Source: a virus (lineage: Duplodnaviria; Heunggongvirae; Uroviricota; Caudoviricetes). Taken from it: a DNA stretch of 64,000 bases. Below, piece by piece: positions 9,958-36,529 of the stretch. A program made the translations under genes and the position numbers. The first letter of the stretch is position 1; every line of letters begins with the position of its first letter. The stretch lies in IMG/VR virus record IMGVR_UViG_3300050821_018098, one strand, 5' to 3'. The notes beneath the pieces are model-generated. The model saw only the letters and a program-made list of their open reading frames with translations, was not told the DNA's origin and searched no databases.

Positions 9958-10308
9958 ATGAATAAATATGTTCTTAATTTTGAGCAGTTTGTAAAAGAAA
10001 GCCAAAATATTGAAACCAATGAATTCTTTAGTTTTAAGAAAAAAGAATTATCACCTATACAGGAAGAATTAGATATGTTTTTAGATATCATAGGAAGTCT
10101 GGATGTGAAGTTTGACAGTTTATATGATATATCGGAAGCAGAAGCTAATAAAGCAAAAACAATAGCTGAACTTATGCATATAGTAAATAAAGTTCTAAAA
10201 GAATTAAAAGAAGTAAACTTTTTAAGTCCTGATGATATAAATGTAAAAGATAGTCTTGAAATTTTCAAAGAAGAGCTTGCTTCTAAGTCTATAGCAATGA
10301 ATGTTTAA
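9958..10308 (+). CDS. small acidic hypothetical protein with CTS-like N-terminus (MNKYVLNFEQFVKE)
   Basis: 116-aa ORF followed by terminator; N-terminal motif shared with five other ORFs. Confidence 0.4.
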   Translation: MNKYVLNFEQFVKESQNIETNEFFSFKKKELSPIQEELDMFLDIIGSLDVKFDSLYDISEAEANKAKTIAELMHIVNKVLKELKEVNFLSPDDINVKDSLEIFKEELASKSIAMNV

Positions 10309-10373
10309 AGTCCTTATGGACATACTTGGTAAAGCCTCTTATCTTCGGATAACGTAACCAAGTGAGAGAATAA

Positions 10374-10400
10374 AACCAGTCCTAAATGACTGGTTTTTTT
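10374..10400 (+). terminator. rho-independent terminator
   Basis: aaccagt-cctaaatg-actggtt followed by a T7 run. Confidence 0.7.
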
Positions 10401-10449
10401 ATGTAAACTTTTTATAGTTTATAGAATATAACAATCAAATAAAACCATT

Positions 10450-11190
10450 ATGAATTTAACTAAACCAACAATTGACTGGTATCAGAAATTGAATCAATTT
10501 AAAAATGATGAATTCAAATTTTTTGAAGCTGAACATGAATACAAATATAAAGGAAAGAAATTTGAAAGTGTAACAACCTTTATAAGTCAATTTCATGAGA
10601 AGTTTGATTCTGATTATTGGAGTCAGATTAAAGCAGAAGAGCGTGGTATCACACAACAAGAAATATTGGCTGAATGGAAAGCTAAAGCTGATAGATCATG
10701 TGATCTTGGTACTATGGTTCATGAGTATGCTGAATACAAATGTGCCGGTAAAGAACCAAAAGAAGTAACTGATGAAGAAGTTAAAAAAAGAATCATAAGT
10801 TTAGAAGAAATATTTGAAACTAAACTGAAGAAGTTTATACCTGTAGCTCAAGAGATAAAAGTATTTTCACCTAAATTAAAACTTGCTGGCACCATAGATG
10901 GTTTATTTGAATATAAACAGAAGTTGGTTGTTGGTGATTATAAAACAAATGAAAAATTTACAACGGATAGTGATAAATGTTATAAAAAGCTTAATCCACC
11001 GTTTCAAAACAGATGGGAAAATAAATTAAATGAATACAGTATACAGGTATCAATGTACCGTCTAATATTAGAAGAATGGGGTATTGAAACTGAGGCAGCA
11101 TTTTTAATACATATTCCACCAGTTGGTAAATCAAATTTCCATATAGCACATGATTTTAGAAATGAATTAAAAATATTCTTTGGTATATAA
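10450..11190 (+). CDS. PD-(D/E)xK nuclease, RecB/lambda-exo/Cas4-like family (no Fe-S Cys cluster)
   Basis: GTIDGLFEY...VVGDYKT (motifs II/III) and QVSMY (QxxxY motif) characteristic of the RecB nuclease family. Confidence 0.5.
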   Translation: MNLTKPTIDWYQKLNQFKNDEFKFFEAEHEYKYKGKKFESVTTFISQFHEKFDSDYWSQIKAEERGITQQEILAEWKAKADRSCDLGTMVHEYAEYKCAGKEPKEVTDEEVKKRIISLEEIFETKLKKFIPVAQEIKVFSPKLKLAGTIDGLFEYKQKLVVGDYKTNEKFTTDSDKCYKKLNPPFQNRWENKLNEYSIQVSMYRLILEEWGIETEAAFLIHIPPVGKSNFHIAHDFRNELKIFFGI

Positions 11191-11197
11191 ATGAAAA

Positions 11198-11237
11198 AAC
11201 CTTCCAAGTGTGCATCATAGAGAGGCATGGAAGGTTT
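11198..11237. terminator. putative bidirectional terminator hairpin between convergent genes
   Basis: aaccttcca...tggaaggtt 9-bp stem with a long loop, flanked by A-run and T-run. Confidence 0.4.
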
Positions 11238-11290
11238 ATTCTAAATGACTCATCAACAGTTCCTATGGTATGTTAGTGAGTACTGTTAAA

Positions 11291-11899
11291 TTACTTCTTA
11301 GCAGAAGGCTTTGGTTTACCAGCAGCTTCAGGAGTTGTAACTTTAGGTGTTACATCAGCTTTTTTATGTTTAGCAGCAGGTTTAGTTTCTGGCAAAGAAA
11401 GTTTACCCTTTTTATCTACTTTAGTAGATTTTTTAGCTTCACTTATACCTTCTGTTTCTTCAGGTTTGGTTTCGTCTGTTTCATCATCAGACATAGTATC
11501 ATCACCAAGACTATCACCCATATCTTCTGTAGAATCAGCAGCATCTGTTGTATCTTCTGCTACTTTTTCACAACAATCAGAAATTTCATCAAGGAATTTT
11601 AACATATCCTCTTTAGTAAACTCATCTTCACTACCTTCTAATTTATCTTTTAAATCAAGAATTTTAGTTTTTATATCAGCTAAAATATCATCAGCATCTA
11701 CTTCATCAGTTTCAGCATCAGTTACATCATCACCAACTTCTTTAGTTTCATCTGAAGTCATAGCATCATCAGCTGGTGCATCAGTCGATGCTGCTGGAGT
11801 TTCTAATTCATCATCAAAAGATTCTTCATTTTCTTGATTTGGTGAATAATTTTCTTTGAACATTTTCCATGTTGGTATTTTCCCGAAAGATTGTTTCAT
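11291..11899 (-). CDS. extremely acidic protein (Asp/Glu/Ser/Thr-rich) with Lys/Pro/Ala-rich basic C-terminal tail
   Basis: 202-aa ORF; body of DDE/TDE runs; C-terminus KKGKLSLPETKPAAKHKKADVTPKVTTPEAAGKPKPSAKK; overlapping plus-strand ORFs are low-complexity mirror frames. Confidence 0.5.
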   Translation of the reverse strand: MKQSFGKIPTWKMFKENYSPNQENEESFDDELETPAASTDAPADDAMTSDETKEVGDDVTDAETDEVDADDILADIKTKILDLKDKLEGSEDEFTKEDMLKFLDEISDCCEKVAEDTTDAADSTEDMGDSLGDDTMSDDETDETKPEETEGISEAKKSTKVDKKGKLSLPETKPAAKHKKADVTPKVTTPEAAGKPKPSAKK

Positions 11900-12052
11900 G
11901 TTTAATTAATTTTATTTTATTTATATATCTACCCAAATAATTCATTTTTTTACTCAGGTCACTTTAGGTAATTATATATCACAAAATAATTTTCTATTTC
12001 CAAAACTATTAACATTCATAGTATATAAAATACAAATATAACTTTAATTAAG

Positions 12053-12718
12053 ATGACGAATTTCGAAAAATTTGCCAAAGGACAAGTAGGCTCATTAGCC
12101 TTACATGATTATGTGAACTATCAAAATAAGATGAAATCTTCTATGTCAGCTTATATTCTTGAAGAAAGAACAGGAAATCTTGCTGTAATGGATATATTTT
12201 CCAGACTTATGATAGACCGAATTATATTTTTAGGTACTGAGATAGATGATATAGTTGCAAATATTGTGAATGCTCAATTGTTATATCTTGACACAGATAA
12301 AGTAAATGAACCAATAAAAATATTTATTAATAGTCCTGGTGGTGAATGTTATAGTGGTCTTGCAATACTAGATTGTATGGATATAGTGAAGTCTCCTGTA
12401 GAAACTGTATGTTTAGGTTTGTCCGCAAGTATGGCTGCTGTTATTTTAGCTCATGGGACCAAAGGTTATAGAAAAGCTACACCAAGAAGCCGAGTGATGA
12501 TTCATCAACCTTCAGGAGGTGCTGGTGGAAACACAACACAAATTTCTATAACGGCTAAAGAATATGAAGAAGTTAAATTCATTTTAGCCGAAACATTAGC
12601 AATTGACACAGGAAAAACTACAGAGGAAATTCTTAATGATTTTGTTTTTGATAAATGGTTAAGTGCTCAAGCAGCTTTGGACTATGGTCTTATTGATAAA
12701 TTAGTTATGAAAAAATAA
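12053..12718 (+). CDS. clpP: ClpP-family serine protease (Clp protease proteolytic subunit-like; candidate prohead protease)
   Basis: GLSASMAAVI (Ser), MIHQPSGG (His), ALDYGLIDKL (Asp) catalytic-triad contexts typical of ClpP/S14. Confidence 0.8.
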   Translation: MTNFEKFAKGQVGSLALHDYVNYQNKMKSSMSAYILEERTGNLAVMDIFSRLMIDRIIFLGTEIDDIVANIVNAQLLYLDTDKVNEPIKIFINSPGGECYSGLAILDCMDIVKSPVETVCLGLSASMAAVILAHGTKGYRKATPRSRVMIHQPSGGAGGNTTQISITAKEYEEVKFILAETLAIDTGKTTEEILNDFVFDKWLSAQAALDYGLIDKLVMKK

Positions 12719-12729
12719 AAAGTAAAACA

Positions 12730-13302
12730 ATGACACTAAATTGGTACGCTGTAAGAATATTAAACAATCAAGAAAATAAAGTAAAAACTTATCTTGATAG
12801 GGAGTTTATTAGAAATATAACCGGAGAATACTTAAATGAAGTATTGATTCCTGTAGAAAGATATTATGAGAAAACTAAAGATGGTAAAAAGAAACTTATA
12901 GAAAAGAAATTATTTTCTGGTTATGTGCTTATTAAAGCTGACTTAAGTAGAGAAATAGTATTGGATACAATTAAAAAAACTCCTGGTATAATTGGGTTTT
13001 TGTCTTATAAAGACAACAATAAATCATCTATACCAACACCTCTAAAAGAAAGAGAAGTTGCTCAATTTTTAGGTAGAGGATCTGATTTAACAGAAGAACA
13101 ATCAACTGATTCTGATTTGTATATCATTGGTGAATCTGTAAGAATAACAGATGGTCCATTTAAAACATTTTTTGGTGAAGTTAAAGAAATTTATGAAGAC
13201 AAGAAGAAAGTAGTAATTGATGTTACTATATTTGGACGTATCACACCAGTCGAAGTTGATTTTAAACAAACAGAAAAAGCCGAACAGAATGTTAAGGTAT
13301 AA
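12730..13302 (+). CDS. nusG: transcription antitermination/elongation factor NusG homolog
   Basis: WYAVRILNNQENKV (NGN), FSGYVLI, and KOW region GESVRITDGPFKTFFGEVKEI...IFGRITPVEVDFKQTEKA closely matching E. coli NusG [21 protein letters not shown]...IFGRATPVELDFSQVEKA. Confidence 0.8.
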   Translation: MTLNWYAVRILNNQENKVKTYLDREFIRNITGEYLNEVLIPVERYYEKTKDGKKKLIEKKLFSGYVLIKADLSREIVLDTIKKTPGIIGFLSYKDNNKSSIPTPLKEREVAQFLGRGSDLTEEQSTDSDLYIIGESVRITDGPFKTFFGEVKEIYEDKKKVVIDVTIFGRITPVEVDFKQTEKAEQNVKV

Positions 13303-13303
13303 A

Positions 13304-13332
13304 AAAAATCCCGGTTAAACCGGGATTTTTTA
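13304..13332 (+). terminator. rho-independent terminator
   Basis: atcccgg-ttaaa-ccgggat followed by tttttt. Confidence 0.8.
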
Positions 13333-13379
13333 TTTAAAATATATTCAAACTAAATAAGATTTAAGGAATATAAATTCAT

Positions 13380-15215
13380 ATGATAAATGATAAAATACAA
13401 GGTACCATAAACCATAAAAATATTGATTTTGCTTTGGTAGAATTTGAAGATGGTGGTTCTCTTAAAGTAAAAAGTAAAAGCCTTAATAAGGCTCTACATG
13501 GAGATCTTGTTGAAATAGGTATAGAAGGTAAAGAATACTTTGTAAGTAAAATAATTCAAAGAAGTATACAACATAAAATTAAAGGACAATTAAAAATAAA
13601 TAAAAATTTAACTTTTTTTGTTCCTCAAGAATCAAATTATTATACAGATTTCTTCATACCAACAAAGTTTTATCTCCAAGGTATGGATGATAAAGATTAT
13701 GTAACAGTTGAATTTTTAAGCTGGGGTGATAAAGATAAGAATCCAACAGCGAAGATTTTAAGTATAGATGGTAACAAATTTACACCAAGGATAGCTACTA
13801 AATTTTTAATCAATGAAATGAATCTTAGGACAGATTTTCCTAATTCTGTTATAGCCCAGGTAGAAAGAATTGAAATTACTGATGATATGTTAATAGGTCG
13901 AAAAGACTTTAGACAACATTTAACTTTTACAATAGATCCAGCAACAGCCAAAGACCATGATGATGCAATATCAATAGAAAAAACAGATAAAGGTTATAGG
14001 GTTGGTATTCATATTGCTGATGTGTCAGCTTTTGTTACACCAGGTACAGCTTTAGATATTGAAGCTTTTGAAAGAGGATGTTCTGTCTACTTAGTGGATG
14101 AACATATACCAATGCTTCCAGAAAAACTATCATCCGATCTATGCAGTCTTATACCAAATGTAGATAGATTATCTTTTTCTGTAATATATGATATAAGTAA
14201 TGAATATAAAATTGAAGGTTACTGGGTTGGAAAAACAATTATTAATTCAAATGAAAATATTTCATATGAAGAGGCCCAAGCAATTTTAGACGATAATGAA
14301 CACAAGTATCATGAAACATTATCTATTTTAAATGATATAGCAGAGTATTTTACTAATACTAGAGAATCTATAGATTTAGAGGCTCCAGAACTCGAATTTA
14401 CACTTGATGAACAAGCATTTCCTATAAAAATAGGTTTGAAAAAAAGACTTGCTACACATAAGTTGATAGAAGCTTTTATGCTTATGGCTAACCAAACTGT
14501 AGCAGAAATACTTAGTAACTATGGTCCAGGTATATACCGAGCACATCCTAAACCAAGCAAACTACAAATATTAGAAATGTATGATTCATTAAAAAAAATG
14601 GGTCTTACTTTAAATTTAAGTGAAGAAGATATAAAGAAAAGTTTGGATGAATTAAAAAGTAATACTCCAGAAGAATTAACTTCTACTGTTCGTGATACTA
14701 TTCTTAGGAGTCTACCAAAAGCCTATTATACTTCAGATGTTGAGGTAGGACACTTTGGTTTAGGGTTTAAATATTACACACATTTCACATCGCCTATAAG
14801 AAGATATCCTGATATCATCGCACATAGATTATTAAATTGTGTAATAGAAAAGAAACAATCTCTTATAACAGATCTTGAATCTAAAGCTGTACTTTTGAGT
14901 AAACGTGAAAAAGTTGCTCAACAAACTGAAAGAGAATCAAGCAGCCAAAAAATGACATTGTTTATGGAGACAATTAATTATCCCATATCAGCTAAAATAG
15001 TAAGTATAAAAGATTGGGGTGTATTTGTGAAGACTGAATTATTATCCGAAGGACTCATACCTATTCATAGTCTGAAAGGTAAATATAAAGATGGTGTAAT
15101 GAAATGCCCCAACTTTACGCTAAAAGTTAATGACTATCTAGTTGTGAAAAAAGAAAGATGTGATTTAAAAAATAGAAGAGTTTATTTCGAACTATTACAA
15201 AAGAAAATTTACTAA
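13380..15215 (+). CDS. RNase II / RNase R family 3'-5' exoribonuclease (RNB domain + C-terminal S1)
   Basis: RNB motifs DDAISIE, GIHIADVSAFV, SVYLVDEHIPMLP, HFGLGFKYYTHFTSPIRRYPDIIAHR; C-terminal S1-like VKIVSIKDWGVFVKT. Confidence 0.8.
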   Translation: MINDKIQGTINHKNIDFALVEFEDGGSLKVKSKSLNKALHGDLVEIGIEGKEYFVSKIIQRSIQHKIKGQLKINKNLTFFVPQESNYYTDFFIPTKFYLQGMDDKDYVTVEFLSWGDKDKNPTAKILSIDGNKFTPRIATKFLINEMNLRTDFPNSVIAQVERIEITDDMLIGRKDFRQHLTFTIDPATAKDHDDAISIEKTDKGYRVGIHIADVSAFVTPGTALDIEAFERGCSVYLVDEHIPMLPEKLSSDLCSLIPNVDRLSFSVIYDISNEYKIEGYWVGKTIINSNENISYEEAQAILDDNEHKYHETLSILNDIAEYFTNTRESIDLEAPELEFTLDEQAFPIKIGLKKRLATHKLIEAFMLMANQTVAEILSNYGPGIYRAHPKPSKLQILEMYDSLKKMGLTLNLSEEDIKKSLDELKSNTPEELTSTVRDTILRSLPKAYYTSDVEVGHFGLGFKYYTHFTSPIRRYPDIIAHRLLNCVIEKKQSLITDLESKAVLLSKREKVAQQTERESSSQKMTLFMETINYPISAKIVSIKDWGVFVKTELLSEGLIPIHSLKGKYKDGVMKCPNFTLKVNDYLVVKKERCDLKNRRVYFELLQKKIY

Positions 15216-15421
15216 TGCAAGATCTAAGAAAAAAAGAAAAATTAAAAAACGTTTACACGGATCACTTACCTAAGATCAATTATAAAAATTTATTAAAGAA
15301 ATCTATATGGATAGGTTCTGTTGTGATATTAGCAGTATTGATTAGTTTTCCCTATCAAATAGGTTATATTATAGGGAAATGGTGGAATTTATTCCTAGTT
15401 GGTTTCAGTGGTACCAACTGA
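15215..15421 (+). CDS. small membrane protein (hypothetical)
   Basis: 68-aa ORF with one hydrophobic helix; start overlaps stop of RNase R-like gene. Confidence 0.3.
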   Translation: MQDLRKKEKLKNVYTDHLPKINYKNLLKKSIWIGSVVILAVLISFPYQIGYIIGKWWNLFLVGFSGTN

Positions 15422-15431
15422 GGTTTTTTTC
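15395..15431 (+). terminator. rho-independent terminator overlapping stop codon
   Basis: cctagttggt-ttcagtggt-accaactgagg followed by ttttttt. Confidence 0.6.
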
Positions 15432-15838
15432 TTATAATAATTTTCAACAGCTGTATTTAAACTATTTGGATTACCAACTTTTAATCTATTTTCTAATTCT
15501 AAAAGGATGCTTCCTAGAAATGTTGTATTAATGTTTGTACCACGTTTACAAGGAACAACCATTTTTTCATCCCTTGCATATATCCATATCTGTTGATCTA
15601 TACCCGGAAATGTATAAAATTGCAATAACCCAGCAGTCCCCATTTTATAACAAAAGCTACCAGTTTCATTTATAAAACGTTCAACAAAACCATCTTTTAT
15701 ATTAATAATAGTTTTATTGTTTTGAGTTTTATCATCAGATACTGCCGTAAATGATTTACCAAGATCAACTTTAAACTCTTTAAAATTACGTTGAAAGGCA
15801 CCTATTATATCTTTACTTGTTACAATATAAATCTCCAT
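15395..15838 (-). CDS. hypothetical protein
   Basis: 147-aa ORF, no recognisable motifs. Confidence 0.3.
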   Translation of the reverse strand: MEIYIVTSKDIIGAFQRNFKEFKVDLGKSFTAVSDDKTQNNKTIINIKDGFVERFINETGSFCYKMGTAGLLQFYTFPGIDQQIWIYARDEKMVVPCKRGTNINTTFLGSILLELENRLKVGNPNSLNTAVENYYKKKTSVGTTETN

Positions 15839-15851
15839 ACAACTATTTATA

Positions 15852-16400
15852 TTAATAAATGTTATCCGTCAAATCTTCTGAATCACCAACCTCTCTGGCT
15901 TCTTTATCACTTTTTGGTTTTTCAAAAATTGTTTTTACAATATCTTTTATTGTTTTTAAAAATAATTTCTCTTTAAGATCTTCTTTGATGTCAATTTTTT
16001 GATCCATTTCTTTTAAAATATTCATATCATTATCATCATAACAATAATAATAAACAGCGATGGTTTTTAAAGCATCTAACTCAGCATCGGGAATATCCAG
16101 TTTATAACAAACTTTCCAAGCGTATATTGCCGTTTCGTTTAAAAAATAAGTAAACCATAGAGTCAAATCACTTTCTGTTTGTTCAATATCTTGAAGTTCA
16201 AAACGAACTTTTCGACCTTTATCATCTTCTTGACCTTTTGACATCCGGCCCCATTTGAACCAATATTTAATTTTAACTTTTAACTCTCTAAAAAAATCCC
16301 GACCAATTACAATATCTTGTTTTTTAATATTTTTATCTTCTCCACTAGTAGCTGGTACTGTCTGTTCTTCAAATTCCTCATATTTTTGTAAATATTTCAT
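15852..16400 (-). CDS. hypothetical protein with CTS-like N-terminal leader (MKYLQKYEEFEEQ); candidate head-packaged internal protein
   Basis: 182-aa ORF; leader shared with 5 other ORFs. Confidence 0.4.
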   Translation of the reverse strand: MKYLQKYEEFEEQTVPATSGEDKNIKKQDIVIGRDFFRELKVKIKYWFKWGRMSKGQEDDKGRKVRFELQDIEQTESDLTLWFTYFLNETAIYAWKVCYKLDIPDAELDALKTIAVYYYCYDDNDMNILKEMDQKIDIKEDLKEKLFLKTIKDIVKTIFEKPKSDKEAREVGDSEDLTDNIY

Positions 16401-16444
16401 CCTAATAAACTAATTCTTTGATGTATATATCAAAAAAATTGTAA

Positions 16445-16702
16445 TTAAATGGATCTTACAAGCATCTTTCCTTCTTCAGAAAGCACATATGTATTAAAAG
16501 TATCATCAATATCTTTAAGTTCTATGAGTTTTGTTGTTTGTAAAAATTGAAAGGTTCTATATTGGATCTGTTCACATAATGGATGAATAGGCTTCATAAG
16601 CTTAATATTGTACAATAATGGCTTCCTAGCAATCACTTTTAAAAGATTTTTTTGAGCCGATGTAAATTTATTTCCATTTTTCATACTAATAATTTTAAAC
16701 AA
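16445..16702 (-). CDS. hypothetical protein
   Basis: 85-aa ORF. Confidence 0.3.
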   Translation of the reverse strand: MFKIISMKNGNKFTSAQKNLLKVIARKPLLYNIKLMKPIHPLCEQIQYRTFQFLQTTKLIELKDIDDTFNTYVLSEEGKMLVRSI

Positions 16703-16744
16703 ATGTAAAAAATATTATACAAGAATAAAAGCATTATTCCATAA

Positions 16745-17857: not shown

Positions 17858-17860
17858 AAA

Positions 17861-18307: not shown

Positions 18308-18308
18308 T

Positions 18309-22811: not shown

Positions 22812-22945
22812 ATGAAAATTCTATATAGAAGTTATATAAGGAAGTCATAGTAAGTTTTCATCTTAAATTGAAATATGAGTAATTGTGTAAATTTAATTCA
22901 TAAGCGGAATCTAAATATATAAAGTAACAAAGTAAAAATATTAAA

Positions 22946-23266
22946 ATGACTGTTTTAAAGTATAAAGAGTTCGTCGAACAACAAAACAATTTTCCAAGGA
23001 CTCTGGTGAATCCAAATACGGATTTAGCAGAAGATGATAAACGCCATTACTTTAAAACTATTATAGCTGATCTTAAGAAAACTCTAATAGAACTTTATGA
23101 TATTAAGGATAAAAGAAGTAAAGATATAATAAAGAAATTTTGGAGTATGCCGGAAACGAAAGCTATTATAGAAGATTGTCTAGGTAAGTATCCACAGATT
23201 CTTCCTCATGTATGTTCACAAAGGATATTGAAAGAACTTGAATACGTTATAAATGAAACGGAGTAA
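22946..23266 (+). CDS. hypothetical protein (N-terminus MTVLKYKEFVEQ resembles the shared leader)
   Basis: 106-aa ORF. Confidence 0.3.
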   Translation: MTVLKYKEFVEQQNNFPRTLVNPNTDLAEDDKRHYFKTIIADLKKTLIELYDIKDKRSKDIIKKFWSMPETKAIIEDCLGKYPQILPHVCSQRILKELEYVINETE

Positions 23267-23796: not shown

Positions 23797-24024
23797 TTAT
23801 TTCTTGTGACTAGTATGTTCCTTTATGAATTCAGTGCCTTTTTTATAAATATCAGAGCCCTCTATCATTTTAATACTGCTATTTAAAAAAGGTATTTTAC
23901 TTTTTATGAATATGAAAGATGTTGGATCTAGTTTTATAAGTATTATAATACCAATTATACCTCCTGGTATAACTATACAAAGACCAAAAAGTAATAAAAA
24001 AACAAGTAATTTAAATTTATACAT
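23797..24024 (-). CDS. small membrane protein
   Basis: 75-aa ORF with strongly hydrophobic core (LLVFLLLFGLCIVIPGGIIGIIILI). Confidence 0.3.
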   Translation of the reverse strand: MYKFKLLVFLLLFGLCIVIPGGIIGIIILIKLDPTSFIFIKSKIPFLNSSIKMIEGSDIYKKGTEFIKEHTSHKK

Positions 24025-26224
24025 TTGTAAATATATCCTCAGCTTTTATCAAATCTCTTTTAATCCACGACTTTAGTTTACTATACCTATGATTATCCAT
24101 AATAGCTTTATCGACTTTACAACCTTTACTAATAAGATATTTAGTTGTTTTTAAATTTTGTTTTTCAATAGCTTCTCTTAATAATTCATTATTTCTAAAT
24201 GTTATATCAGCATTTTTTTCTTCTATTAACCATTTTAAAATTTTAAATATATTTTCTATTTTTACTTTGTCAGATTCATAATATGATGAAATACAATTTA
24301 ATACATATTCACCATAATGACTATCCACTTTCTTTTCTTCTGATGTTCTGTTTTTAAGCCAATAAGAATCACCGTTATTAGGATCCATTTTTAATGTGCT
24401 TAATAAATATTTAAACATTTCATAATAACCTTCTCGACAACATCTTACTAATTCATGATTATTAGAAAATTGTCTTATAATAGACACTTTTTTCTCTTCA
24501 GCAAAAAATTTAACAAGTTCTAAGTTATTGGAATTTACAGCTTCTATAAATAAAGATTCGTTAAAATTTCGCTCGCTTAAAGAGTCACTATGCCTCATAC
24601 CATCTTTTGACCAATCAGCTTTACTATATTCATCAAAAAACTCTTTGTTCATTTTATTTTTAATATAAAAATCTAACCTATATGCTCTATATTTATTAGG
24701 TTTTTCTTCTGTTAAAAGTAACTTTTTAACGTCATCAATTTTATTATTTTTTACCATCCAAGAACCTAGTTGAGACCACTTATCATAACCTATTACACCA
24801 GTTTCCTTCCATACTTTGTAACAATTCGTCATATCACCTAACTTATAATAAGCATCAAATTTATTTACAGGATCTTTAATAGTATCTTCAATTAGCTCAG
24901 AAAGGAATATTTTATAACTTTTGTCTATAGTATAATAATAATTTCTATAAACATTTATAATTTGTAGTATATAATTTTCGTTTTTTACATATTTCTTAAC
25001 AATATCAACAAATTGATCGAATAGAGATTTATTTTGTAGAAAATAAGTAATCACATTAGGTAGATATTTTGCTACATCTATACGGTCCAGATTATTTAAA
25101 AATAATTCACTTTGTTTATCTCTAAAAATTTTACCTGGTGCCTCACACAAAAGATCCATTTGTTGATCAATAGATAATTTTGAAATATACAATAAGAAAA
25201 TATTATTATTTTTAGAAGAAAGTAAATAATTTACAAGTTCTAGTTTGTTGGCAAACTTTAAAGCTTTTGATTTATTAATAGCTTGTTCAGAATCTAATAC
25301 CTTTATAACACTTGTAGGTATACCAGTTTGTTCTAAATATTTTGTTTTGTTTATACCTACTAAAGGTGTATCATCCTTTTTATGTGCAAAATTCATTTTA
25401 CCGTCTTGTTCTACAGTGAAACCTACAAGAAATAATTTGTCTGTAATATCTTTTTCAAACCACCAAGAAAAATATTGTGCTGCTAAAATATTTTTTGTAT
25501 ACTGTTGAAAATAACTAATACTTCTACTGATACACCAAGCATCAGAACCAAATTTTTTAGAAGCATCAAATGTCAGTATACGACAAACAATAACACCCTT
25601 ATTTATGTCTGTATAAACAATATCTACATCTGTATCACTTTTTAAGTTAGTCAGTAATGTCTCATAATTAGCACTAAAACTTCTTTTAGAAACAAAAGAA
25701 ATCAAAGAACTTAAAAGTGATTGAAAATCTTTAAAAACACTCAATTTCTTTATCAGATCTGATTTATCAGGAAGATCATAAAATAATATAGCAGCCTCTT
25801 TAAATTTATTTTTATTTTCTTGTGTTTGATTATCAACAATATTTTTTAAGTTAGATGGTAGTTCATTAAAAATTTTATTAGCTTTATTGTCACGTTCAAC
25901 TTGATTCATAGCATCTTCCAATTTTTCAGGACCATCTAAAATGTAATCAACCGGAGATTTAGGTAGTTTTTGAATAAGATTATTCCTTTTAAAAAACTCT
26001 AACCTATCAACTAACTTTTTAGCATCATCAAACATAAATTTAAATTCATAATAAAAATATATAAGCATGTAAACATAACCTAAACAATTTTTACTACTAC
26101 AAAATTCTGTATATTGTTTCAGTATTCCGTCACCACTAGGATGTTTTTCAGCCAAATATTTTTTAGCTTTTTGTACATCCTCATTAATAGGTCGAAAATC
26201 ATCAAATTTTTTAAAAAACTTCAT
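24017..26224 (-). CDS. large hypothetical protein with CTS-like leader (MKFFKKFDDFRPINE) and ankyrin-like repeats near C-terminus; candidate injected effector
   Basis: 735-aa ORF; C-terminal NNHELVRCCREGYYEMFKYLLS and RNNELLREAIEKQNLKTTKYLISKGCKVD resemble ankyrin repeat consensus. Confidence 0.4.
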   Translation of the reverse strand: MKFFKKFDDFRPINEDVQKAKKYLAEKHPSGDGILKQYTEFCSSKNCLGYVYMLIYFYYEFKFMFDDAKKLVDRLEFFKRNNLIQKLPKSPVDYILDGPEKLEDAMNQVERDNKANKIFNELPSNLKNIVDNQTQENKNKFKEAAILFYDLPDKSDLIKKLSVFKDFQSLLSSLISFVSKRSFSANYETLLTNLKSDTDVDIVYTDINKGVIVCRILTFDASKKFGSDAWCISRSISYFQQYTKNILAAQYFSWWFEKDITDKLFLVGFTVEQDGKMNFAHKKDDTPLVGINKTKYLEQTGIPTSVIKVLDSEQAINKSKALKFANKLELVNYLLSSKNNNIFLLYISKLSIDQQMDLLCEAPGKIFRDKQSELFLNNLDRIDVAKYLPNVITYFLQNKSLFDQFVDIVKKYVKNENYILQIINVYRNYYYTIDKSYKIFLSELIEDTIKDPVNKFDAYYKLGDMTNCYKVWKETGVIGYDKWSQLGSWMVKNNKIDDVKKLLLTEEKPNKYRAYRLDFYIKNKMNKEFFDEYSKADWSKDGMRHSDSLSERNFNESLFIEAVNSNNLELVKFFAEEKKVSIIRQFSNNHELVRCCREGYYEMFKYLLSTLKMDPNNGDSYWLKNRTSEEKKVDSHYGEYVLNCISSYYESDKVKIENIFKILKWLIEEKNADITFRNNELLREAIEKQNLKTTKYLISKGCKVDKAIMDNHRYSKLKSWIKRDLIKAEDIFTNV

Positions 26225-26305
26225 ATATTATATATCAAATATAAGAATTTAATATGAAAGTTCATTTTTATGTTTTAAATTTGTATCCACGTAAAAAATA
26301 TTAAA

Positions 26306-27416: not shown

Positions 27417-27437
27417 AACCTATATATTCAAGCCGAA

Positions 27438-30574: not shown

Positions 30575-30595
30575 ACTATTGATTTAAAGCTATTA

Positions 30596-30628
30596 AAAAC
30601 CTCATAAATTAAATTTATGAGGTTTTTA
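30596..30628 (+). terminator. rho-independent terminator
   Basis: aacctcataaatt-aa-atttatgaggtt 13-bp perfect stem followed by ttttt. Confidence 0.8.
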
Positions 30629-30672
30629 AATTTTTTATATGATAATATCATAGAAATTTTTAGCTTTGCAAC

Positions 30673-31215
30673 ATGATGGAACTCCTTAATGAATTTACAA
30701 AAGCAGAATTGATATTTTTCTGTATTGGTATTATAGCAACTGTACTATTTATAATTCAAACTTCACTAAGCTTTATTGGTACTGATGATATTGAATTTGA
30801 TACTGAAGAAGGTTTCGAAATATTAACAATCAAAAATTTAGTTATTTTTATGATGATCTTCGGTTGGTCTGGAATGGTTGCTATTGATAGTTTTAAATTA
30901 CAAATTTCCTCTTCCATAGTATTCTCTTTTACTATTTCAGTACTAGTAATTTTTATACTATCCGGTATAGTATATTTTATGAGTAAGATGAAACATGATG
31001 GTACAATTAAAATGGAGAATTGTATTGGTAAAATAGCTCAGGTGTATCTGAATGTAAGTCCCCAAGGAATGGGTAAAGTAACATTATCTGTTCAAGGAGC
31101 TTATAGAGAATTCGATGCTATATCAAAAAACAAAGTTTATATACCATCAGGAGCCAATGTAAAAGTCACAGGATTTCAAGATAATATTCTTGAAGTAGAA
31201 ACAATTAATTCATAA
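30673..31215 (+). CDS. NfeD-like membrane protein (partner of SPFH/flotillin proteins)
   Basis: N-terminal TM helices, C-terminal beta-rich OB-like segment GKIAQVYLNVSPQGMGKVTLSVQGAYREFDAISKNKVYIPSGANVKVTGFQDNILEVE; located directly upstream of flotillin-like gene as in yqiJ-yqiK. Confidence 0.5.
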   Translation: MMELLNEFTKAELIFFCIGIIATVLFIIQTSLSFIGTDDIEFDTEEGFEILTIKNLVIFMMIFGWSGMVAIDSFKLQISSSIVFSFTISVLVIFILSGIVYFMSKMKHDGTIKMENCIGKIAQVYLNVSPQGMGKVTLSVQGAYREFDAISKNKVYIPSGANVKVTGFQDNILEVETINS

Positions 31216-31240
31216 TTTTAAACAAATATAAATCACAACT

Positions 31241-32773
31241 ATGTACTCAATAATTTTAGCATCCTTAATTTTTGTTGTATTATTTGCAACAGTATACTCT
31301 ATTTTCAAACGCTATAAAAGATGTCCATCGGATAAAATACTCGTAATCTATGGTAAAGTAGGTGGTGAAAATAGTTCTAAATGTATCCATGGTGGAGCAG
31401 CATTTATATGGCCGGTCTTCCAGGAATCAACTTTCCTTGATTTAAAACCAATTGCTCTCAAAGTAGATGTTGACAAAGCATTATCGAAACAAAACATTCG
31501 ACTCAATGTTAAGTCTAATTTCACTATAGGTATATCTACAGAACCAACAATCATGACTAATGCTGCTGAAAGGCTTCTTGGTTTACAAACAACTAGTATA
31601 TCGACATTGGCTGAAGATATCATTGTTGGTCAGCTAAGACAAATAATTTCTTTAATGGATATTGAAGAAATAAATACTGACCGGGATAAATTCTTGACAA
31701 ACATTCAGAGTAACGTTGAAAATGAACTTAAGAAAATCGGTCTAAAATTGATTAATGTCAATATTGTTGATATTAAAGATGAATCTGGGTACATTGATGC
31801 TCTTGGTAAAGAAGCTGCTGCTAAAGCCTTAAATGATGCTAAAAAATCTGTAGCAGAAAAAGACAGAGATGGTGCCATCGGTGAAGCTGACGCAAATCAG
31901 GATAAGATAACTAAAGTATCTAAGCTTACAGCTCAATCGGAGATCGGTAAAGCAAATGCCGAAAGAGAGAAACGTACTAATATAGCTGATGCCAATGCTT
32001 TAGCAGTAGAAGGTGAAAACACGGCACAGATTAAAATAGCTAAGTCTGAAGCAGAAAAGAGAGAAGCTTTAGCTCAGGCAAATAAAACAGCAACTGTAGC
32101 TGAACAAGTTGCTCAAGCAAAAGCTAAAGAAGAATCATACTCAGCACAAACAAAAGCTGAGTTAGCTCGTGCTGAAATGTCAAAAGCTACCAAAGAAGCA
32201 GATATTATTGTTGATACTGATATAGCAAAGAGAAAACTTGTTATTGAGGCTCAGGCCGAAGCTGAATCATTAATAGAGAAAGCTAAAGGTCAAGCTAATT
32301 CAGCTATTGAAATCGCTAAAGGTGAGGCCGAATCAGTATTTCTGAAACTTGAAGCTGAAGCAAAAGGTAATTATGAAATTTTAGCTAAACAAGCAAAAGG
32401 TTTCGAAGAACTTGTTAAAGCTGCCGGAGGAGATCCTAAAACAGCGATTCAATATCTTATCAGTGAGAAAATAGTAGAGATTTACAAAATCCAAGCAGAT
32501 GCTATACAAAATATCAAAATTGATAAAATTACTGTATGGGAAAACGGTGGAGGAAAAGATGGTGGATCTTCAACAACAAATTTCATCAATAGTCTTTTAC
32601 AAGCAATTCCACCAAATGCTGATCTTTTGAATATGGTGGAACAGAGTCTTCCTGGATTCTTAGATGCTATAAAGACTAAAGAAATTAAAGAAATTAAAGA
32701 AAATCAACCAGTTTTGGTGACAGGTGCTGGAAAAGAAAATAATAATAATAATTCACAATTACTTAAAAGCTAA
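31241..32773 (+). CDS. SPFH/band-7 flotillin-like protein (YqiK/FloT family)
   Basis: N-terminal TM anchor then PSDKILVIYGKVGG...IHGGAAFIWPVFQESTFLDLKPIALKVDV SPFH core; long Ala/Glu/Lys-rich coiled-coil typical of flotillins. Confidence 0.75.
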   Translation: MYSIILASLIFVVLFATVYSIFKRYKRCPSDKILVIYGKVGGENSSKCIHGGAAFIWPVFQESTFLDLKPIALKVDVDKALSKQNIRLNVKSNFTIGISTEPTIMTNAAERLLGLQTTSISTLAEDIIVGQLRQIISLMDIEEINTDRDKFLTNIQSNVENELKKIGLKLINVNIVDIKDESGYIDALGKEAAAKALNDAKKSVAEKDRDGAIGEADANQDKITKVSKLTAQSEIGKANAEREKRTNIADANALAVEGENTAQIKIAKSEAEKREALAQANKTATVAEQVAQAKAKEESYSAQTKAELARAEMSKATKEADIIVDTDIAKRKLVIEAQAEAESLIEKAKGQANSAIEIAKGEAESVFLKLEAEAKGNYEILAKQAKGFEELVKAAGGDPKTAIQYLISEKIVEIYKIQADAIQNIKIDKITVWENGGGKDGGSSTTNFINSLLQAIPPNADLLNMVEQSLPGFLDAIKTKEIKEIKENQPVLVTGAGKENNNNNSQLLKS

Positions 32774-32779
32774 TTTACT

Positions 32780-33790
32780 ATGATACTAATACTTGCAATT
32801 CTTGTTACAGTGTCGGGCTTCTTTGCCGGCCTTATCCTATCTTTCATGGGTTTAGATATATCTGATTTAGAAAGAAAAGCGAAACTTGGTGATAAAAGAG
32901 CAACCAAGATATTACCGTTAAGAAGAAAGAGTAATCAATTACTCTCCACACTTATGATGTGTAATGTGTTTATCAACTCAACAATTTCAACCTTTATGTC
33001 TGAAGGTGGTAATGGTGGAATAACATCTATAATCATATCAGCATCATTGATCTTAGTTTTTGGTGACATTGTGCCTACAGCAATCTGTAATAAATATAAA
33101 ATGTCTATAGCATCATATACAACACCTTTGGTTTACGTCATGTTTTATATTTTATGGCCTATAACTTATCCATTATCATATGTTCTTGACAGATGGCTTC
33201 ATGTTGAAATGACAACAATGTTTACTAAGAATGAAATAAAAGAAATTATTCATGCTCATGAAAAACACTCTACTATAGATACACACGAAAAGAATATTAT
33301 GATCGGTGGTTTAACTTATTCTTCTAAGTCTGTTCTTGATATTATGACACCTATAACACAACTTTATCGTATTAATATAGATAAGCCGGTGACATTAGAA
33401 GAATTAAAGAAACAAAATTATGCAAGGGTTCCTGTATATCAGGGTACTAGAGATAATGTTATTGGAATATTATTTCTTAAAGATCTTGTCGGAGAATCTT
33501 CTGTACAAATAGATGTTGCTAAGAAATACAGACAGGATGGTATCATAAAAGTTATGGAGACAGAAAAACTTGATGTCTTGCTTAACAAGCTTATAAAACA
33601 ACAAGTACACATGTCTTTTGTATATGATCAGTATGGTACATTAAGAGGCGTTGTAACAATGGAAGATATTTTAGAAACCATTATTGATCGTGAAATTTTA
33701 GATGAATCTGATTTAATTGTAGATCATCAAGAAGAAGCGAAAAGAACTTTTGATATCGAAAAAACTTCTGAGTTAGAAAAAATATCATAA
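32780..33790 (+). CDS. CNNM/CorC/TlyC-family membrane protein (DUF21 transmembrane domain + CBS pair)
   Basis: N-terminal DUF21-like TM domain (ILAILVTVSGFFAGLILSFMGLD...LSTLMMCNVFINS) followed by two CBS-like segments (IMTP..., VPVYQG..., HMSFVYDQYGTLRGVVTMEDILE). Confidence 0.65.
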   Translation: MILILAILVTVSGFFAGLILSFMGLDISDLERKAKLGDKRATKILPLRRKSNQLLSTLMMCNVFINSTISTFMSEGGNGGITSIIISASLILVFGDIVPTAICNKYKMSIASYTTPLVYVMFYILWPITYPLSYVLDRWLHVEMTTMFTKNEIKEIIHAHEKHSTIDTHEKNIMIGGLTYSSKSVLDIMTPITQLYRINIDKPVTLEELKKQNYARVPVYQGTRDNVIGILFLKDLVGESSVQIDVAKKYRQDGIIKVMETEKLDVLLNKLIKQQVHMSFVYDQYGTLRGVVTMEDILETIIDREILDESDLIVDHQEEAKRTFDIEKTSELEKIS

Positions 33791-33814
33791 AGTAAATTTT
33801 ATTATATACTGTTA

Positions 33815-33846
33815 GAGGGATAGGTTTTACAAAATTAACTATCCCT
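33815..33846 (+). terminator. possible terminator hairpin (long loop, weak T-tract)
   Basis: gagggatag...ctatccctc 9-bp stem with 14-nt loop after the CNNM-like gene. Confidence 0.3.
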
Positions 33847-34042
33847 CATTTAATTTGATAAAAAATAACAGTATGTAAAACATGAAAATATGGAGGAGTA
33901 CTTTAGCGAATATTTTATATTTTTTAATCCCTGCTGCTTTAGTATTTAACATTAATCCCAATGTTTCCATATTGATTATGTTAGTATGTATATCATATTT
34001 AAAGTATAAGCATTTAGAACGTAAGAGAGATAATATCCAAGA

Positions 34043-34744
34043 TTAAATATTTGATATAACCATCGCTGGCTCTTGTTCACAATTCCATTTAAACCAATAA
34101 AAATCAACATCCTGTATATGATATGGAGATTCCTCATATATTATATTTATTTTTGGCTTCTCATCTTGAGTAATAACTTCATCTACAACTATTTTACTTC
34201 CTGGTTTTACAAAAATATTTTGTCCCCAACTATTTTTTACATTGATTCCAGCATTAACTATCCATCTACCAGTATGTGGTTTGAAATAGTCATGTAAAAT
34301 GTTTTTTAAAATACCAATTACTTTAATCTTTACAGATGCATTACCATATACCTCATCGAAACTTGATGATTTGAAGAATGGTGTTTGAAATCCACCCCAG
34401 TTTTGAAATATACCTAAAAATATTTGTTCACCTATAATGAATTTCAAATATATGTCAAGAAGATTCAAATTGTTATCGAACATTTTAAGTATAAAAACTT
34501 GTTTCATATCAACATTTGAACTGTCAACATAACTACCACCATGAAGATTTCTTAAACCGGTTGAAATTTGTACTAAAGTATCTATTTGTTGTCTTTTAAG
34601 GCCAGCATATCTATCAAAAGGATCAAAAGATAATTGTGGATCTCTTGGTTGCATTGCACCTGTACCAGTACTAAGACTTTGAAACATGAATTCGCTAGTT
34701 TCAGTTAGTTTTTCAAAATCATCATATTTCTTAATAAACTTCAT
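34043..34744 (-). CDS. hypothetical protein with CTS-like leader (MKFIKKYDDFEKLTE); candidate head-packaged internal protein
   Basis: 233-aa ORF; leader motif shared with 5 other ORFs. Confidence 0.4.
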   Translation of the reverse strand: MKFIKKYDDFEKLTETSEFMFQSLSTGTGAMQPRDPQLSFDPFDRYAGLKRQQIDTLVQISTGLRNLHGGSYVDSSNVDMKQVFILKMFDNNLNLLDIYLKFIIGEQIFLGIFQNWGGFQTPFFKSSSFDEVYGNASVKIKVIGILKNILHDYFKPHTGRWIVNAGINVKNSWGQNIFVKPGSKIVVDEVITQDEKPKINIIYEESPYHIQDVDFYWFKWNCEQEPAMVISNI

Positions 34745-34847
34745 AATCTATATATCTATTCCATAAATTAAACAACAAAAAATCTTTTCAATAATACCTA
34801 AAACTTTCTTGAATTAAGCCATATAACTTACAAATGTTAGCATAAAT

Positions 34848-36098
34848 ATGGCAAAAGGAAAAAGTCTTAAGAAGTTTGAATTCTCCCAGATCGGTAAGAT
34901 TATGGAGCAAGCAAGCGAAGGAAAACACGTTATTATTAATAATTCTCAAAAAAGAGAATTTATCCCAACAAGTATCTATATACTCAATGCACTTTTAAGT
35001 GGTTCCCTATTACATGGTGGTATCCTCACTAACCGTATTACAATTATGGCCGGGGAAGAAGCTACTGGTAAATCTTATCTATGTTATCACATAGGTAGAG
35101 AAGCTCAGAAAAAAGGATATAAAATTATTTATATTGATACAGAGGGATCTATTGAATTAGATGATTTTGCTTCACATGGTATTAAATCAGATCCAGATAA
35201 TTTAATGTTGGTAGATTGTTCAGTTGTTGAAGATCTTACACACATACTAGCCAACTTACTTAGTAAATTACAAGAAGCAAAAGATCAAGGTTTTGAACTT
35301 GAGAAAATTATTATCTTCATTGATTCTCTTGGTCAGCTTTCTTCAAGAAAAGAAAAACTAGTTGCTATTGAAGGTAAAGATACTCTAGATATGACTCGTG
35401 CTAAAGCAATCAAAGCACTCTTCCGTATTGTAAATAGTGATTTGAAACACTTAGGTATTCCAATGGTTTGTACCAACCATACCTATAAATCACAAGATTT
35501 TATTCCTACAGATATCATGGGTGGTGGTAAAGGTCCTTATTACTCAGCATCACATATTGTATTCCTTTCTAAAGCTAAACTTAAGACTGGTGAGGAAGAT
35601 GATTTAGATCTTGGTCAAACAGGTATTATTGTGACAGCTAAAGCTATTAAAAATAGGTTAGCTAAACCTAAGAAAGTTAAGTTTCATATATCATTTGATG
35701 CCGGAACCAATCCTTTTGTTGGTCTTGACTTCTTTTGTTTGCCAGCTGTATACAAACAAGTTGGTATCGCCAAAGGAAAACCAAAAATTACATCAGATGG
35801 AGAAGAAACTTTTGAAGAAGGTGGTAATCGTTGGTATGTAAGACATCTTAATAAGCATATTACAGCTTCCGAATTATTTACAGCTAAAGTATTTACACAA
35901 GAGGTATTAGAAGCCCTGGAGCCTCTTATTTATGAATATTTCAGATACAAAAATCACGAAGAAGTTGAATCAATGCTTAAAAACTTTGAAAAACTTATCG
36001 ATGAAGCTGAAGTTAAAGCAAGTAAAATGACTAATAGTAAGAGTATGACTGAAATTACAGCAAGTGATTTTGATGAACAACTCGATAGTGATGAATAA
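34848..36098 (+). CDS. uvsX: UvsX/RecA-family recombinase
   Basis: Walker A AGEEATGKS, Walker B IIFIDSLGQL, and VCTNHTYKSQDF...GGGKGPYYSASHIVFLSK matching the T4 UvsX TNHTYE...GG..YSA region. Confidence 0.75.
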   Translation: MAKGKSLKKFEFSQIGKIMEQASEGKHVIINNSQKREFIPTSIYILNALLSGSLLHGGILTNRITIMAGEEATGKSYLCYHIGREAQKKGYKIIYIDTEGSIELDDFASHGIKSDPDNLMLVDCSVVEDLTHILANLLSKLQEAKDQGFELEKIIIFIDSLGQLSSRKEKLVAIEGKDTLDMTRAKAIKALFRIVNSDLKHLGIPMVCTNHTYKSQDFIPTDIMGGGKGPYYSASHIVFLSKAKLKTGEEDDLDLGQTGIIVTAKAIKNRLAKPKKVKFHISFDAGTNPFVGLDFFCLPAVYKQVGIAKGKPKITSDGEETFEEGGNRWYVRHLNKHITASELFTAKVFTQEVLEALEPLIYEYFRYKNHEEVESMLKNFEKLIDEAEVKASKMTNSKSMTEITASDFDEQLDSDE

Positions 36099-36113
36099 TA
36101 TTAGGTTATGAAA

Positions 36114-36148
36114 TAAAAAAGGTCAGCTGAATCAGCTGACCTTTTTTA
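36114..36148. terminator. bidirectional rho-independent terminator
   Basis: aaaaaa-ggtcagctg-aat-cagctgacc-tttttt. Confidence 0.85.
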
Positions 36149-36529
36149 TTTCTTTTTAGGTTTACCTATATAAGCTTTAATTGGTACATTAAGATTGACC
36201 GCAGCCTCTAATCTATGAGCACCATCAAGAAATAAATATTCTTTACCAGTATCTACCAAAACAACTGGTGGAAATCCAGAACCATTTTTATATTCTTTCA
36301 TATAACGTTTAACGTCCCTTTTTGAATGAGCATACAGATTTTTTATTTTCGGATCGTTTGGTTGAATCCAAATAGGTTTTAGATTCCAAGTATATTGATT
36401 CAAACCATTTATACCACGCCAAGCATCACGTGCTGTTCCAGCATAAATATTATATTGATCAATATGATCAGATATAACTTTATATGGTTCTGGTACTTCA
36501 AAGGTTTCAAAAGTTTTAACGTATTTCAT
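36146..36529 (-). CDS. ParB-like nuclease (ParB N-terminal/sulfiredoxin fold) domain protein with CTS-like leader (MKYVKTFETFEVPE)
   Basis: KEYLFLDGAHRLEAA (DGxHR motif of the ParB/Srx fold); 127 aa. Confidence 0.4.
   Translation of the reverse strand: MKYVKTFETFEVPEPYKVISDHIDQYNIYAGTARDAWRGINGLNQYTWNLKPIWIQPNDPKIKNLYAHSKRDVKRYMKEYKNGSGFPPVVLVDTGKEYLFLDGAHRLEAAVNLNVPIKAYIGKPKKK

Follow-up and report, generated by a model that had tools for sequence, protein, structure and literature searches.

Otherwise unrelated proteins of a huge-phage fragment and its relatives share an N-terminal leader resembling the T4 capsid-targeting sequence

We analyzed a stretch of 64,000 nucleotides from a Caudoviricetes record of the IMG/VR database (IMGVR_UViG_3300050821_018098), hereafter the window, and focused on a short N-terminal leader, or tag, that recurs on proteins with otherwise unrelated sequences. 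The window has a G+C content of ~30% and no Shine-Dalgarno sequences upstream of its genes, and 73 non-overlapping genes were called in its 64 kb. An earlier note on this DNA had listed six open reading frames (ORFs) with near-identical N-termini, and all six are present. Four of them, all on the minus strand, start with MK[FY]h[KQ][KT][YF][DE]xF (34043-34744, 24017-26224, 15852-16400 and 36146-36529), and two carry a shifted version of the leader (9958-10308 and 22946-23266).

The ORF at 34043-34744 encodes 233 amino acids (aa) and begins with MKFIKKYDDFEKLTE/T (slash, predicted cleavage position), with the leader and an L-T-E site at 34700-34744 and a body that belongs to no known family; its structure model, built from a two-sequence alignment, reached a pLDDT of 33. 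An orthologue of this protein (P0002), 55% identical, has retained the leader (MAFVKKYKDFVKSNE), which is immediately followed by a 9-residue indel. The largest member, 24017-26224, encodes 735 aa and starts with MKFFKKFDDFRPINE/D (leader at 26180-26224). The protein at 15852-16400 (182 aa) starts with MKYLQKYEEFEEQTV, its leader lies at 16371-16400 with a profile score of 25, and its N-terminus as matched by the strict pattern described below is MKYLQKYEEFEEQ; a canonical [LIV]-x-E does not directly follow the leader. The fourth minus-strand ORF, 36146-36529, encodes a protein of 127 aa with a ParB/sulfiredoxin fold, starts with MKYVKTFETFEVPE/P (leader at 36488-36529) and closes a three-gene run (36837-37187, 36529-36822 and 36146-36529). 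On the plus strand, 9958-10308 encodes 116 aa and starts with MNKYVLNFEQFVKE/S (leader at 9958-9999); one residue is inserted after the Met, the leader otherwise fits, and its segment LNFEQFVKE aligns with KTYQEFIAE of phage T4. The other plus-strand ORF, 22946-23266 (106 aa, MTVLKYKEFVEQ), has the aromatics and the F-V, lacks Lys2, has Q in place of Glu and finds its next L-A-E only at residues 27-29, so that we regard its membership in the set as doubtful.

The public contig L001 is 100% identical to the final 1323 bases of the window and continues into head genes, which allowed us to extend the right-hand end only. On the left, look-ups with the window genes 58-1479 and 1479-7067 matched no record, and a look-up with 9391-9684 returned a contig that stops short of the window start. 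A seventh tagged gene lies on L001 (8896-10179, minus strand), ~8 kb past the window end on the same contig. It starts with MKYFKKSDTYQSINE/D and encodes a nucleoside 2-deoxyribosyltransferase-like domain fused to a Nudix domain.

The occurrence of these N-termini was compared with chance expectation. The strict pattern K[FY][FILVM][KQ][KT][YF][DE][DET]F has four matches in the six-frame translation of the window, each of them beginning at residue 2 of an ORF that is preceded, within a few codons, by a stop, and none elsewhere. A looser core, [KTNL][FY][DEK][DETQ]F, is found within the first 12 residues of 6 of the 73 called genes; in 5000 trials with random internal 12-residue windows or shuffled N-terminal residues, such genes numbered 0.09 on average and never more than 2. 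The looser regular expression was fitted after the data had been seen, and the motif was confirmed by independent scans of other collections. A degenerate DNA pattern of the window leader gave 93 matches in 86 stretches of IMG/VR viral contigs, of which ~85 are at true ORF starts, on highly diverse proteins. The same pattern in 596 Gb of bacterial and archaeal genomes gave 32 matches in 31 stretches; about half of these fall in spurious ORFs of 10-33 codons, and most of the others are on AT-rich contigs of metagenome bins. An AT-rich genome with many MK starts and proteins rich in K, F, Y, E and D might be thought to produce such leaders by accident, and the ~30% G+C of the window would favor this. 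The uracil-DNA glycosylase at 37239-37925, whose start MNTWIEFIKNE resembles the T4 sequence by chance, is an example; we rejected it as a leader member, as this segment presumably aligns with the conserved start of E. coli Ung. Nevertheless, the counts given above, within the window and between viral and cellular genomes, effectively refute compositional accident.

The tag is spread over a group of huge phages. The capsid protein encoded just past the window end has its best matches in the phage collection in huge phages of 634-735 kb (48-55% identity), followed by a 462 kb genome (35%) and Lak phages (29%). The 634-735 kb phages belong to the Mahaphage clade, with Bacteroidetes as predicted hosts (PMC7162821). 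Judged by these matches, the window is a piece of a megaphage with a T4-like head that is related to the Mahaphage clade. DNA searches revealed no nucleotide relative of the window, or of one tag-bearing locus, among 50,697 phage records, and no tag-bearing cultured phage was found in the phage collection among the relatives examined. About 30 of the 86 tag loci hold homologues of window genes with 35-60% identity. In its fuller form the clade consensus reads M-K-[YHF]-[ILV]-[KQH]-[TK]-[FY]-E-x-F-[ILV]-N-E, and in relatives the tagged genes form tandem arrays of 5-14. The array-bearing contigs have in common a protein of ~600 aa, which in the phage collection is present only in the six huge-phage genomes. 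In the complete 462 kb relative LR756500.1, assembled from ten pieces and comprising 660 genes, 32 genes carry the tag at the N-terminus, with a single internal match elsewhere; the tagged genes occur in clusters. The 15 LR756500.1 homologues of window core genes all lack the tag. The same holds for the window itself, where the tag is absent from ~22 functionally annotated genes (replication, nucleotide metabolism, ClpP, NusG and RNase R).

Tagged genes do not gather around the capsid gene in general, since only 9 of 392 genes were tagged in 29 capsid-centred loci of close relatives, and we rejected such clustering. At one locus (L059), four tagged genes sit between the portal and protease genes, a position that we take to correspond to the T4 prohead-core genes 67 and 68. 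As a separate observation, 12 LR756500.1 proteins also end alike, with ...NADDFGF(F/L)DN, and no other protein of that genome does (examples, at loci L155-L163 and L124, are 11706-12197, 13446-14282 and 198758-199531). One of the 12 has a weaker tag (MKFILEYKVFVND) and the rest have the full N-terminal tag; this C-terminus is absent from the window and might represent a second signal at a protein terminus.

The level at which the leader is conserved bears on whether it is a peptide signal at all. Over the first 30 coding bases, the leader DNA is 60-90% identical between genes; outside this stretch, over 60 bases in each direction, identity is 20-47%. Codon position 3 is less conserved (40-60%) than positions 1 and 2 (70-85%) in five of six pairs, which argues that selection acts on the peptide. 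The earlier note had ascribed the likeness to the protein level on account of differing codon usage; this applies to five of the six pairs, but not to 34043/24017, in which the leader DNA is 90% identical at all codon positions. These two genes also have an ATATATA heptamer 4 nucleotides (nt) from the ATG. They speak for an element that works as nucleic acid, namely a 5' coding cassette that aids initiation without a Shine-Dalgarno sequence or on leaderless mRNA, or a recombination site, with the peptide as by-product. The lack of Shine-Dalgarno sequences and the A/T-rich leader DNA agree with such an element, as do the tandem arrays, which resemble cassette shuffling; recombination at conserved regulatory cassettes is reportedly documented in T4-type phages. 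Nonetheless, beyond the variable third codon positions in the other five pairs, the clade conserves classes of residues (aromatic, acidic, aliphatic, Glu) that are encoded by many different codons, and an mRNA element would have no need of F-E-x-F-[ILV]-x-E. We consider a purely nucleic-acid-level role improbable, although a role of the leader in recombination can coexist with one in targeting.

Beyond the leader, the proteins have little in common. As the earlier note had proposed, their bodies are unrelated, with no BLASTP similarity among them. When 185 tagged proteins were clustered by their bodies, 133 families resulted, the largest with 12 members, and homologous bodies occur without the leader in other phages. 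These figures bear on a descent of the six proteins from one fast-diverging family, of which only the N-termini would still be alike. Some tagged proteins in relatives are true paralogues, as the family of 12 illustrates, and the LR756500.1 subfamily with the common C-terminal motif points the same way. For the set as a whole, however, such paralogy is very improbable: body similarity is undetectable, the folds and domains differ (ankyrin, ParB/sulfiredoxin, ADP-ribosyltransferase (ART), cytidylyltransferase and HAD), and the same bodies are found elsewhere untagged. The leader as a short N-terminal peptide shared by otherwise unrelated proteins is thus confirmed.

Only ~15 of 150 tagged proteins have Pfam matches. 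The recognizable domains comprise ankyrin repeats, cytidylyltransferases, PNK 3'-phosphatase, cyclic-phosphate-processing, methyltransferase, radical SAM and HAD domains, a full ART-PolyVal ADP-ribosyltransferase (E 7e-26) and a weak match to Acb1, an assortment that would fit early injected effectors by analogy. The AlphaFold model of 36146-36529 has a pLDDT of 80, with residues 1-10 below 50, unstructured and outside the fold. Nearly all of its ~48 top Foldseek hits in the PDB have the ParB/Srx fold (best E 1.5e-3), among them sulfiredoxin, ParB, Noc, KorB, PadC, a serine kinase and SbnI. The body contains a DGAHRL motif (DGxHR type) that is conserved in the orthologues, five of six of which have a leader-like N-terminus, with indels just after it. 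The description of this protein in the earlier note as having a ParB-like nuclease domain is therefore borne out as to the fold, but not as to a nuclease. The 735-aa protein (24017-26224), described there as ankyrin-like, has ankyrin repeats only at residues ~551-617, and is for the most part something else: residues ~1-300 form another, widespread domain. No Pfam model matches this domain, and a word-index protein search with the 735-aa protein found no homologue; an exhaustive HMMER search yielded 516 representatives of the domain at E <= 0.001. Most of its N-terminal copies start with MK[FY]h[KR]x[FYW]xxF..[IL]xE-N-xQQAK and a few lack the leader. Members of this domain family (P0010-P0158) have conserved GSxxWCI, QYFIWNF and AHD motifs, and in many cases the domain leads into a very acidic region and a conserved ...SGYDGxE...YYIYRxN at the C-terminus.

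The likeness to the capsid-targeting sequence of T4, which the earlier note had pointed out, proved to be quantitative. In the T4 record, the internal proteins IPII and IPIII start with MKTYQEFIAE/A and IPI with MKTFKEFTSTTTPVSTITE/A. Within the 10-residue T4 targeting sequence, residues 4 and 7 serve targeting and residues 8 and 10 processing (PMC9026906), and the T4 protease gp21 cuts after L/I-x-E (PMC9026906; bioRxiv 2021.01.19.427310). KTYQEFIAE aligns with KT[FY]ExF[ILV]xE of the tag at an offset of three residues, so that T4 residues 4, 7, 8 and 10, the functional ones, coincide with the aromatic, Phe, [ILV] and Glu of the tag, which are its four most strongly conserved columns. Scored against columns 5-13 of the leader profile, KTYQEFIAE obtains 11.3 bits, and 0.027% of the 9-mers of window proteins score as high. 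All 104 training sequences of this profile have F or Y in column 7, and in column 10 F is found 99 times and Y 5 times; both aromatics are present in all six window leaders.

A putative cleavage site accompanies the leader. The earlier note had seen LTE, INE or VPE after several leaders, and indeed four of the six window ORFs have an [LIV]-x-E (L-T-E, I-N-E, V-P-E and V-K-E) with the Glu at residue 14 or 15. In a set of 70 leader proteins selected solely on residues 1-10, an [LIV]xE whose Glu falls at residue 13 or 14 is present in 21, compared with a background of ~2-3% per position. T4 IPI, which has the core, a spacer and then I-T-E, indicates that a spacer between core and cleavage site is tolerated, and the window leaders ...DDFEKLTE and ...DDFRPINE are built likewise.

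The genes expected of a T4-type head lie next to the window end. A T4-type virion module starts within the window with a putative gp15-like tail sheath stabiliser (59769-60617, plus strand; weak Pfam T4-gp15_tss match), and the portal, protease-scaffold and capsid genes follow 0.5-6 kb past the window end. In coordinates extended through L001, these are the portal (Portal_T4; 64460-66214), a protease-scaffold fusion of 708 aa (66354-68480, L001 3677-5803; 2.35 kb past the end) and the capsid protein (Gp23; 68558-70342, L001 5881-7665). The fusion matches phrog_207, head maturation protease, at E 3e-29, has weak Pfam matches to Peptidase_S77 and S80, and is placed between the Portal_T4 and Gp23 genes; a sequence search of its protease domain against solved structures gave no match. 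Its scaffold part has 5.1 [LIV]xE per 100 aa, versus 1.9 in the called proteins of the window, and contains ~ten 14-residue repeats of the form N-Y-G-x-Y-[ILV]-x-E-x-L-N-x-S-I, each with a putative cleavage site. The capsid propeptide ends with V-Q-E/N, at a position presumably equivalent to the T4 gp23 cleavage site, and [VI]-x-E is conserved there in relatives. This gp21-type protease-scaffold is our candidate for the processing enzyme. The ClpP-family protease at 12053-12718, which the earlier note had proposed for this role, was rejected: it is a cellular-type ClpP, with 202 bits over the full length of Pfam CLP_protease and 200-226 bits on NCBIfam models of cellular ClpP; it reaches 79 bits on NCBIfam Clp_rel_HeadMat, where the cut-off is 120; and it lies outside the head module, next to NusG and RNase R.

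The presence of a full cellular-type ClpP leads to the question as to whether the tag is a docking or stability signal unrelated to the capsid, such as an N-terminal degron for a Clp unfoldase working with the phage ClpP, or a signal for another hub. The short, amphipathic, N-terminal form of the tag, its position outside the folded body and its heterogeneous, often enzymatic cargo would all suit such a function. On the other hand, ClpP homologues are present in only 2 of 86 tag-bearing loci (each locus <= 15 kb), and a degron would leave unexplained the residue-by-residue match with T4, the recurrent [ILV]-x-E after the tag, the ATATATA that tagged genes have in common with head genes, and the tagged genes between portal and protease. 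We consider this explanation unlikely.

The ATATATA heptamer links the tagged genes with the head genes. It is under-represented overall, with 37 oriented copies in 73.6 kb, 24 of which lie 4-45 nt upstream of a start codon on the same strand (mode 22), in two spacing classes of ~22 nt and ~4-8 nt. It precedes ~30% of all genes, among them the portal, protease-scaffold, capsid and gp15-like genes and five of the six leader genes; none was found before the gp41, gp44, UvsX, RNR and ThyA genes. Compared with other genes, leader genes are enriched for the heptamer (5/6 versus 19/74, Fisher p = 0.008). The copies concerned are at 9930-9936 (+), 16424-16430 (-), 22915-22921 (+), 26229-26235 (-), 34749-34755 (-) and 37210-37216 (-); the sixth leader gene (36146-36529) is the last of the three-gene run that a single ATATATA precedes. 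The spacing to the start codon is 4 nt for 34043-34744, 23 nt for 15852-16400 and 25 nt for 22946-23266, and for 9958-10308 it is 22 nt, the same as for the portal, protease and capsid genes. The copies span the window from 9930 to 63111 and continue beyond. In LR756500.1, 11 of 32 tagged genes have the heptamer, compared with 71 of 628 other genes (p = 8e-4). The window also encodes a gp55-like late sigma factor (62555-63058, minus strand; phrog_234, 'late sigma transcription factor', E 1.7e-9, with a weak Sigma70_r2 match). From the distribution over genes and the presence of this factor, we infer that ATATATA is probably a late promoter read by the gp55-like sigma factor.

Based on these observations, we propose that the shared N-terminus is a T4-type capsid-targeting propeptide that is cut at [ILV]-x-E, a reading by analogy to which we assign a probability of roughly 0.6. 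By this analogy, late in infection the tagged proteins (M-K-[FY]-h-K-x-[FY]-[DE]-x-F) would bind the scaffold core of the prohead through the two aromatics and be enclosed by the capsid shell; the gp21-type prohead protease, itself fused to the scaffold, would then free the cargo at the first [I/L/V]-x-Glu after the tag, and the mature cargo would remain inside the head until it enters the host together with the DNA. Scaffold binding, cleavage, packaging and injection are all modeled on T4. Like the T4 targeting sequence, the tag is an N-terminal peptide of ~10-19 residues counted from Met1, with two aromatics three residues apart followed by aliphatic-x-Glu, and it is carried by unrelated, fast-evolving proteins whose genes tend to cluster; as in T4, a gp20/gp21/gp22/gp23-type head module and a gp55-type late sigma factor are encoded in the same genome. 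The arrays and the placement at L059 match the organization of the T-even internal-protein genes. Several features differ: the consensus MKYIKTFExF[ILV]NE is three residues longer at the N-terminus, has Glu-x between the aromatics where T4 has x-Glu, seems to accept Val at P3, and in the window copies is often separated from the site by 2-3 residues; protease and scaffold form one fusion protein; and the cargo, which is not basic, includes large enzymes and amounts to ~5% of the genes of a complete genome, compared with three to a handful in T4. No homology of the cargo to T4 internal proteins was detected, and no PHROG or Pfam matches to internal virion proteins were found. The window leader proteins were therefore rejected as members of the IPI-III family, given their pI of 4.5-9.7 and sizes of up to 735 aa; they have the tag in common, not the family.

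A number of points weigh against this proposal. Every step after the existence of the tag is drawn by analogy. The cargo is not generally basic, as seen from the pI range of the six window proteins in their mature form, and the larger set of tagged proteins is slightly more acidic than the products of other genes. Some of the cargo looks cytoplasmic, e.g., an NMN-adenylyltransferase-like protein and the nucleoside deoxyribosyltransferase-Nudix fusion. In some stretches about half of the genes are tagged (14 of 27 in L009), which would be a large load per capsid. Two window ORFs, 15852-16400 and 22946-23266, have no nearby canonical [LIV]-x-E. In one member of the family defined by the N-terminal domain of the 735-aa protein (P0015), the [IL]-x-E-N junction is duplicated internally along with the domain, so that part of the 'site' may belong to the first helix of the domain. 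The ATATATA lies only 4 nt from the ATG in two leader genes, a spacing that fits a promoter only if the mRNA is leaderless. The cultured T4-like phages that we compared, Tenacibaculum phage pT24, Flavobacterium phage immuto and Methylophilales phage Melnitz, have no such leaders in the 27-40 kb examined of each; we therefore rejected the tag as general to T4-like phages and regard it as lineage-specific. Finally, small acidic proteins with the same N-terminus are encoded at a few chromosomal loci of Chitinophagaceae (Taibaiella and others). These proteins (L100 2148-2384, L112 2024-2248 and L105 1921-2103) are 60-78 aa long and very acidic, start with MKYLKTYENF... or MKYLKTFENF..., and have XRE-type regulators, zinc-ribbon proteins and transposase-like genes as neighbours; they might be remnants of mobile elements or a hint at the host.

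Other packaging systems show partial similarity. In phiKZ-like giant phages (phiKZ, 201phi2-1 and SPN3US), propeptides of head ejection proteins are cut at S/A/G-x-E by a gp21-related protease (PMC9026906). The present case is similar in the large size of the phage, the many head proteins and the trimming after Glu, here predicted, by a diverged gp21-family protease. It differs in that the phiKZ-like propeptides are long and family-specific, with no short common N-terminal tag described, that their P3 residue is small rather than aliphatic, and that their head genes are not T4-type. Head-packaged polyvalent proteins characteristically carry ParB domains and ARTs, and Alt of T4 is an ART that is packaged (PMC5512222). 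ART-PolyVal, ParB-like and RNA-repair-type domains are likewise found among the tagged proteins, and in both cases delivery with the DNA before phage expression is presumed; polyvalent proteins combine many domains in one giant polypeptide, often MuF- or portal-anchored, in contrast to the separate small tagged genes described here. The genes for T-even internal proteins are known to have only a conserved targeting sequence in common (PMC3012670), and a targeting peptide on internal proteins has been put forward as a strategy general to T4-like phages (PMC9026906). In the literature searched, which mostly excludes subscription journals, so that an earlier mention is possible, we found no description of the present tag, of its occurrence in huge phages or of its scale, and among literal leader strings only the T4 sequence itself.

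The remainder of the window combines T4-type and cellular-type genes. The T4-type replication proteins comprise a UvsX-like RecA, a gp41-like helicase and a gp44-like clamp loader, and cellular-type genes encode ClpP, NusG, RNase R, ThyA and ribonucleotide reductase (RNR). Full-length ClpP, a NusG-like factor and an RNase R-like exoribonuclease with cold-shock and S1 domains form a cluster at 12053-15215. The gene for the RNR large subunit (45945-49451, minus strand) is interrupted by an intein with a LAGLIDADG homing endonuclease, as seen from Hint, Intein_splicing and LAGLIDADG_3 matches at residues ~292-648. Two cellular-type membrane proteins are encoded at 31241-33790 (plus strand), a 510-aa SPFH/Band 7 protein followed by a putative transporter with CNNM/CBS domains. 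A second, different common N-terminus is found on the adjoining plus-strand genes 7083-9389 (768 aa) and 9391-9684 (97 aa), which start nearly identically with MNILQYTTSTSGTITSQDTQQD and MHVLQYTTVTSGTVTAQDTGQD, respectively; the pair adjoins a gene for an 1862-aa fibre-like protein, and the longer gene encodes a GDSL lipase-like domain.

Huge phages have been seen only in metagenomes, and for most of their genes no function has been assigned. Should the tag function as proposed, proteins that are carried in the virion and delivered at the first moment of infection could be picked from sequence alone; in T4 this class includes the anti-restriction protein IPI and the ADP-ribosyltransferase Alt. 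The T4 targeting code would then also be ancient, conserved in modified form among very distant T4-type heads. Even the small sample of contigs covered here holds tagged proteins of at least 133 unrelated families. That the tag is, clade-wide, the sorting signal of a large injected proteome, with ~5% of each genome, dozens of genes shuffled in arrays and hundreds of families, is a tentative extension, to which we give somewhat less than an even chance. Were it true, this proteome would include ADP-ribosyltransferases and NAD-salvage-type, RNA-repair-type and anti-CBASS-like enzymes, and would be an order of magnitude more complex than the internal proteins of T4. A search for the N-terminal motif would then amount to a catalogue of candidate first-strike counter-defence proteins.

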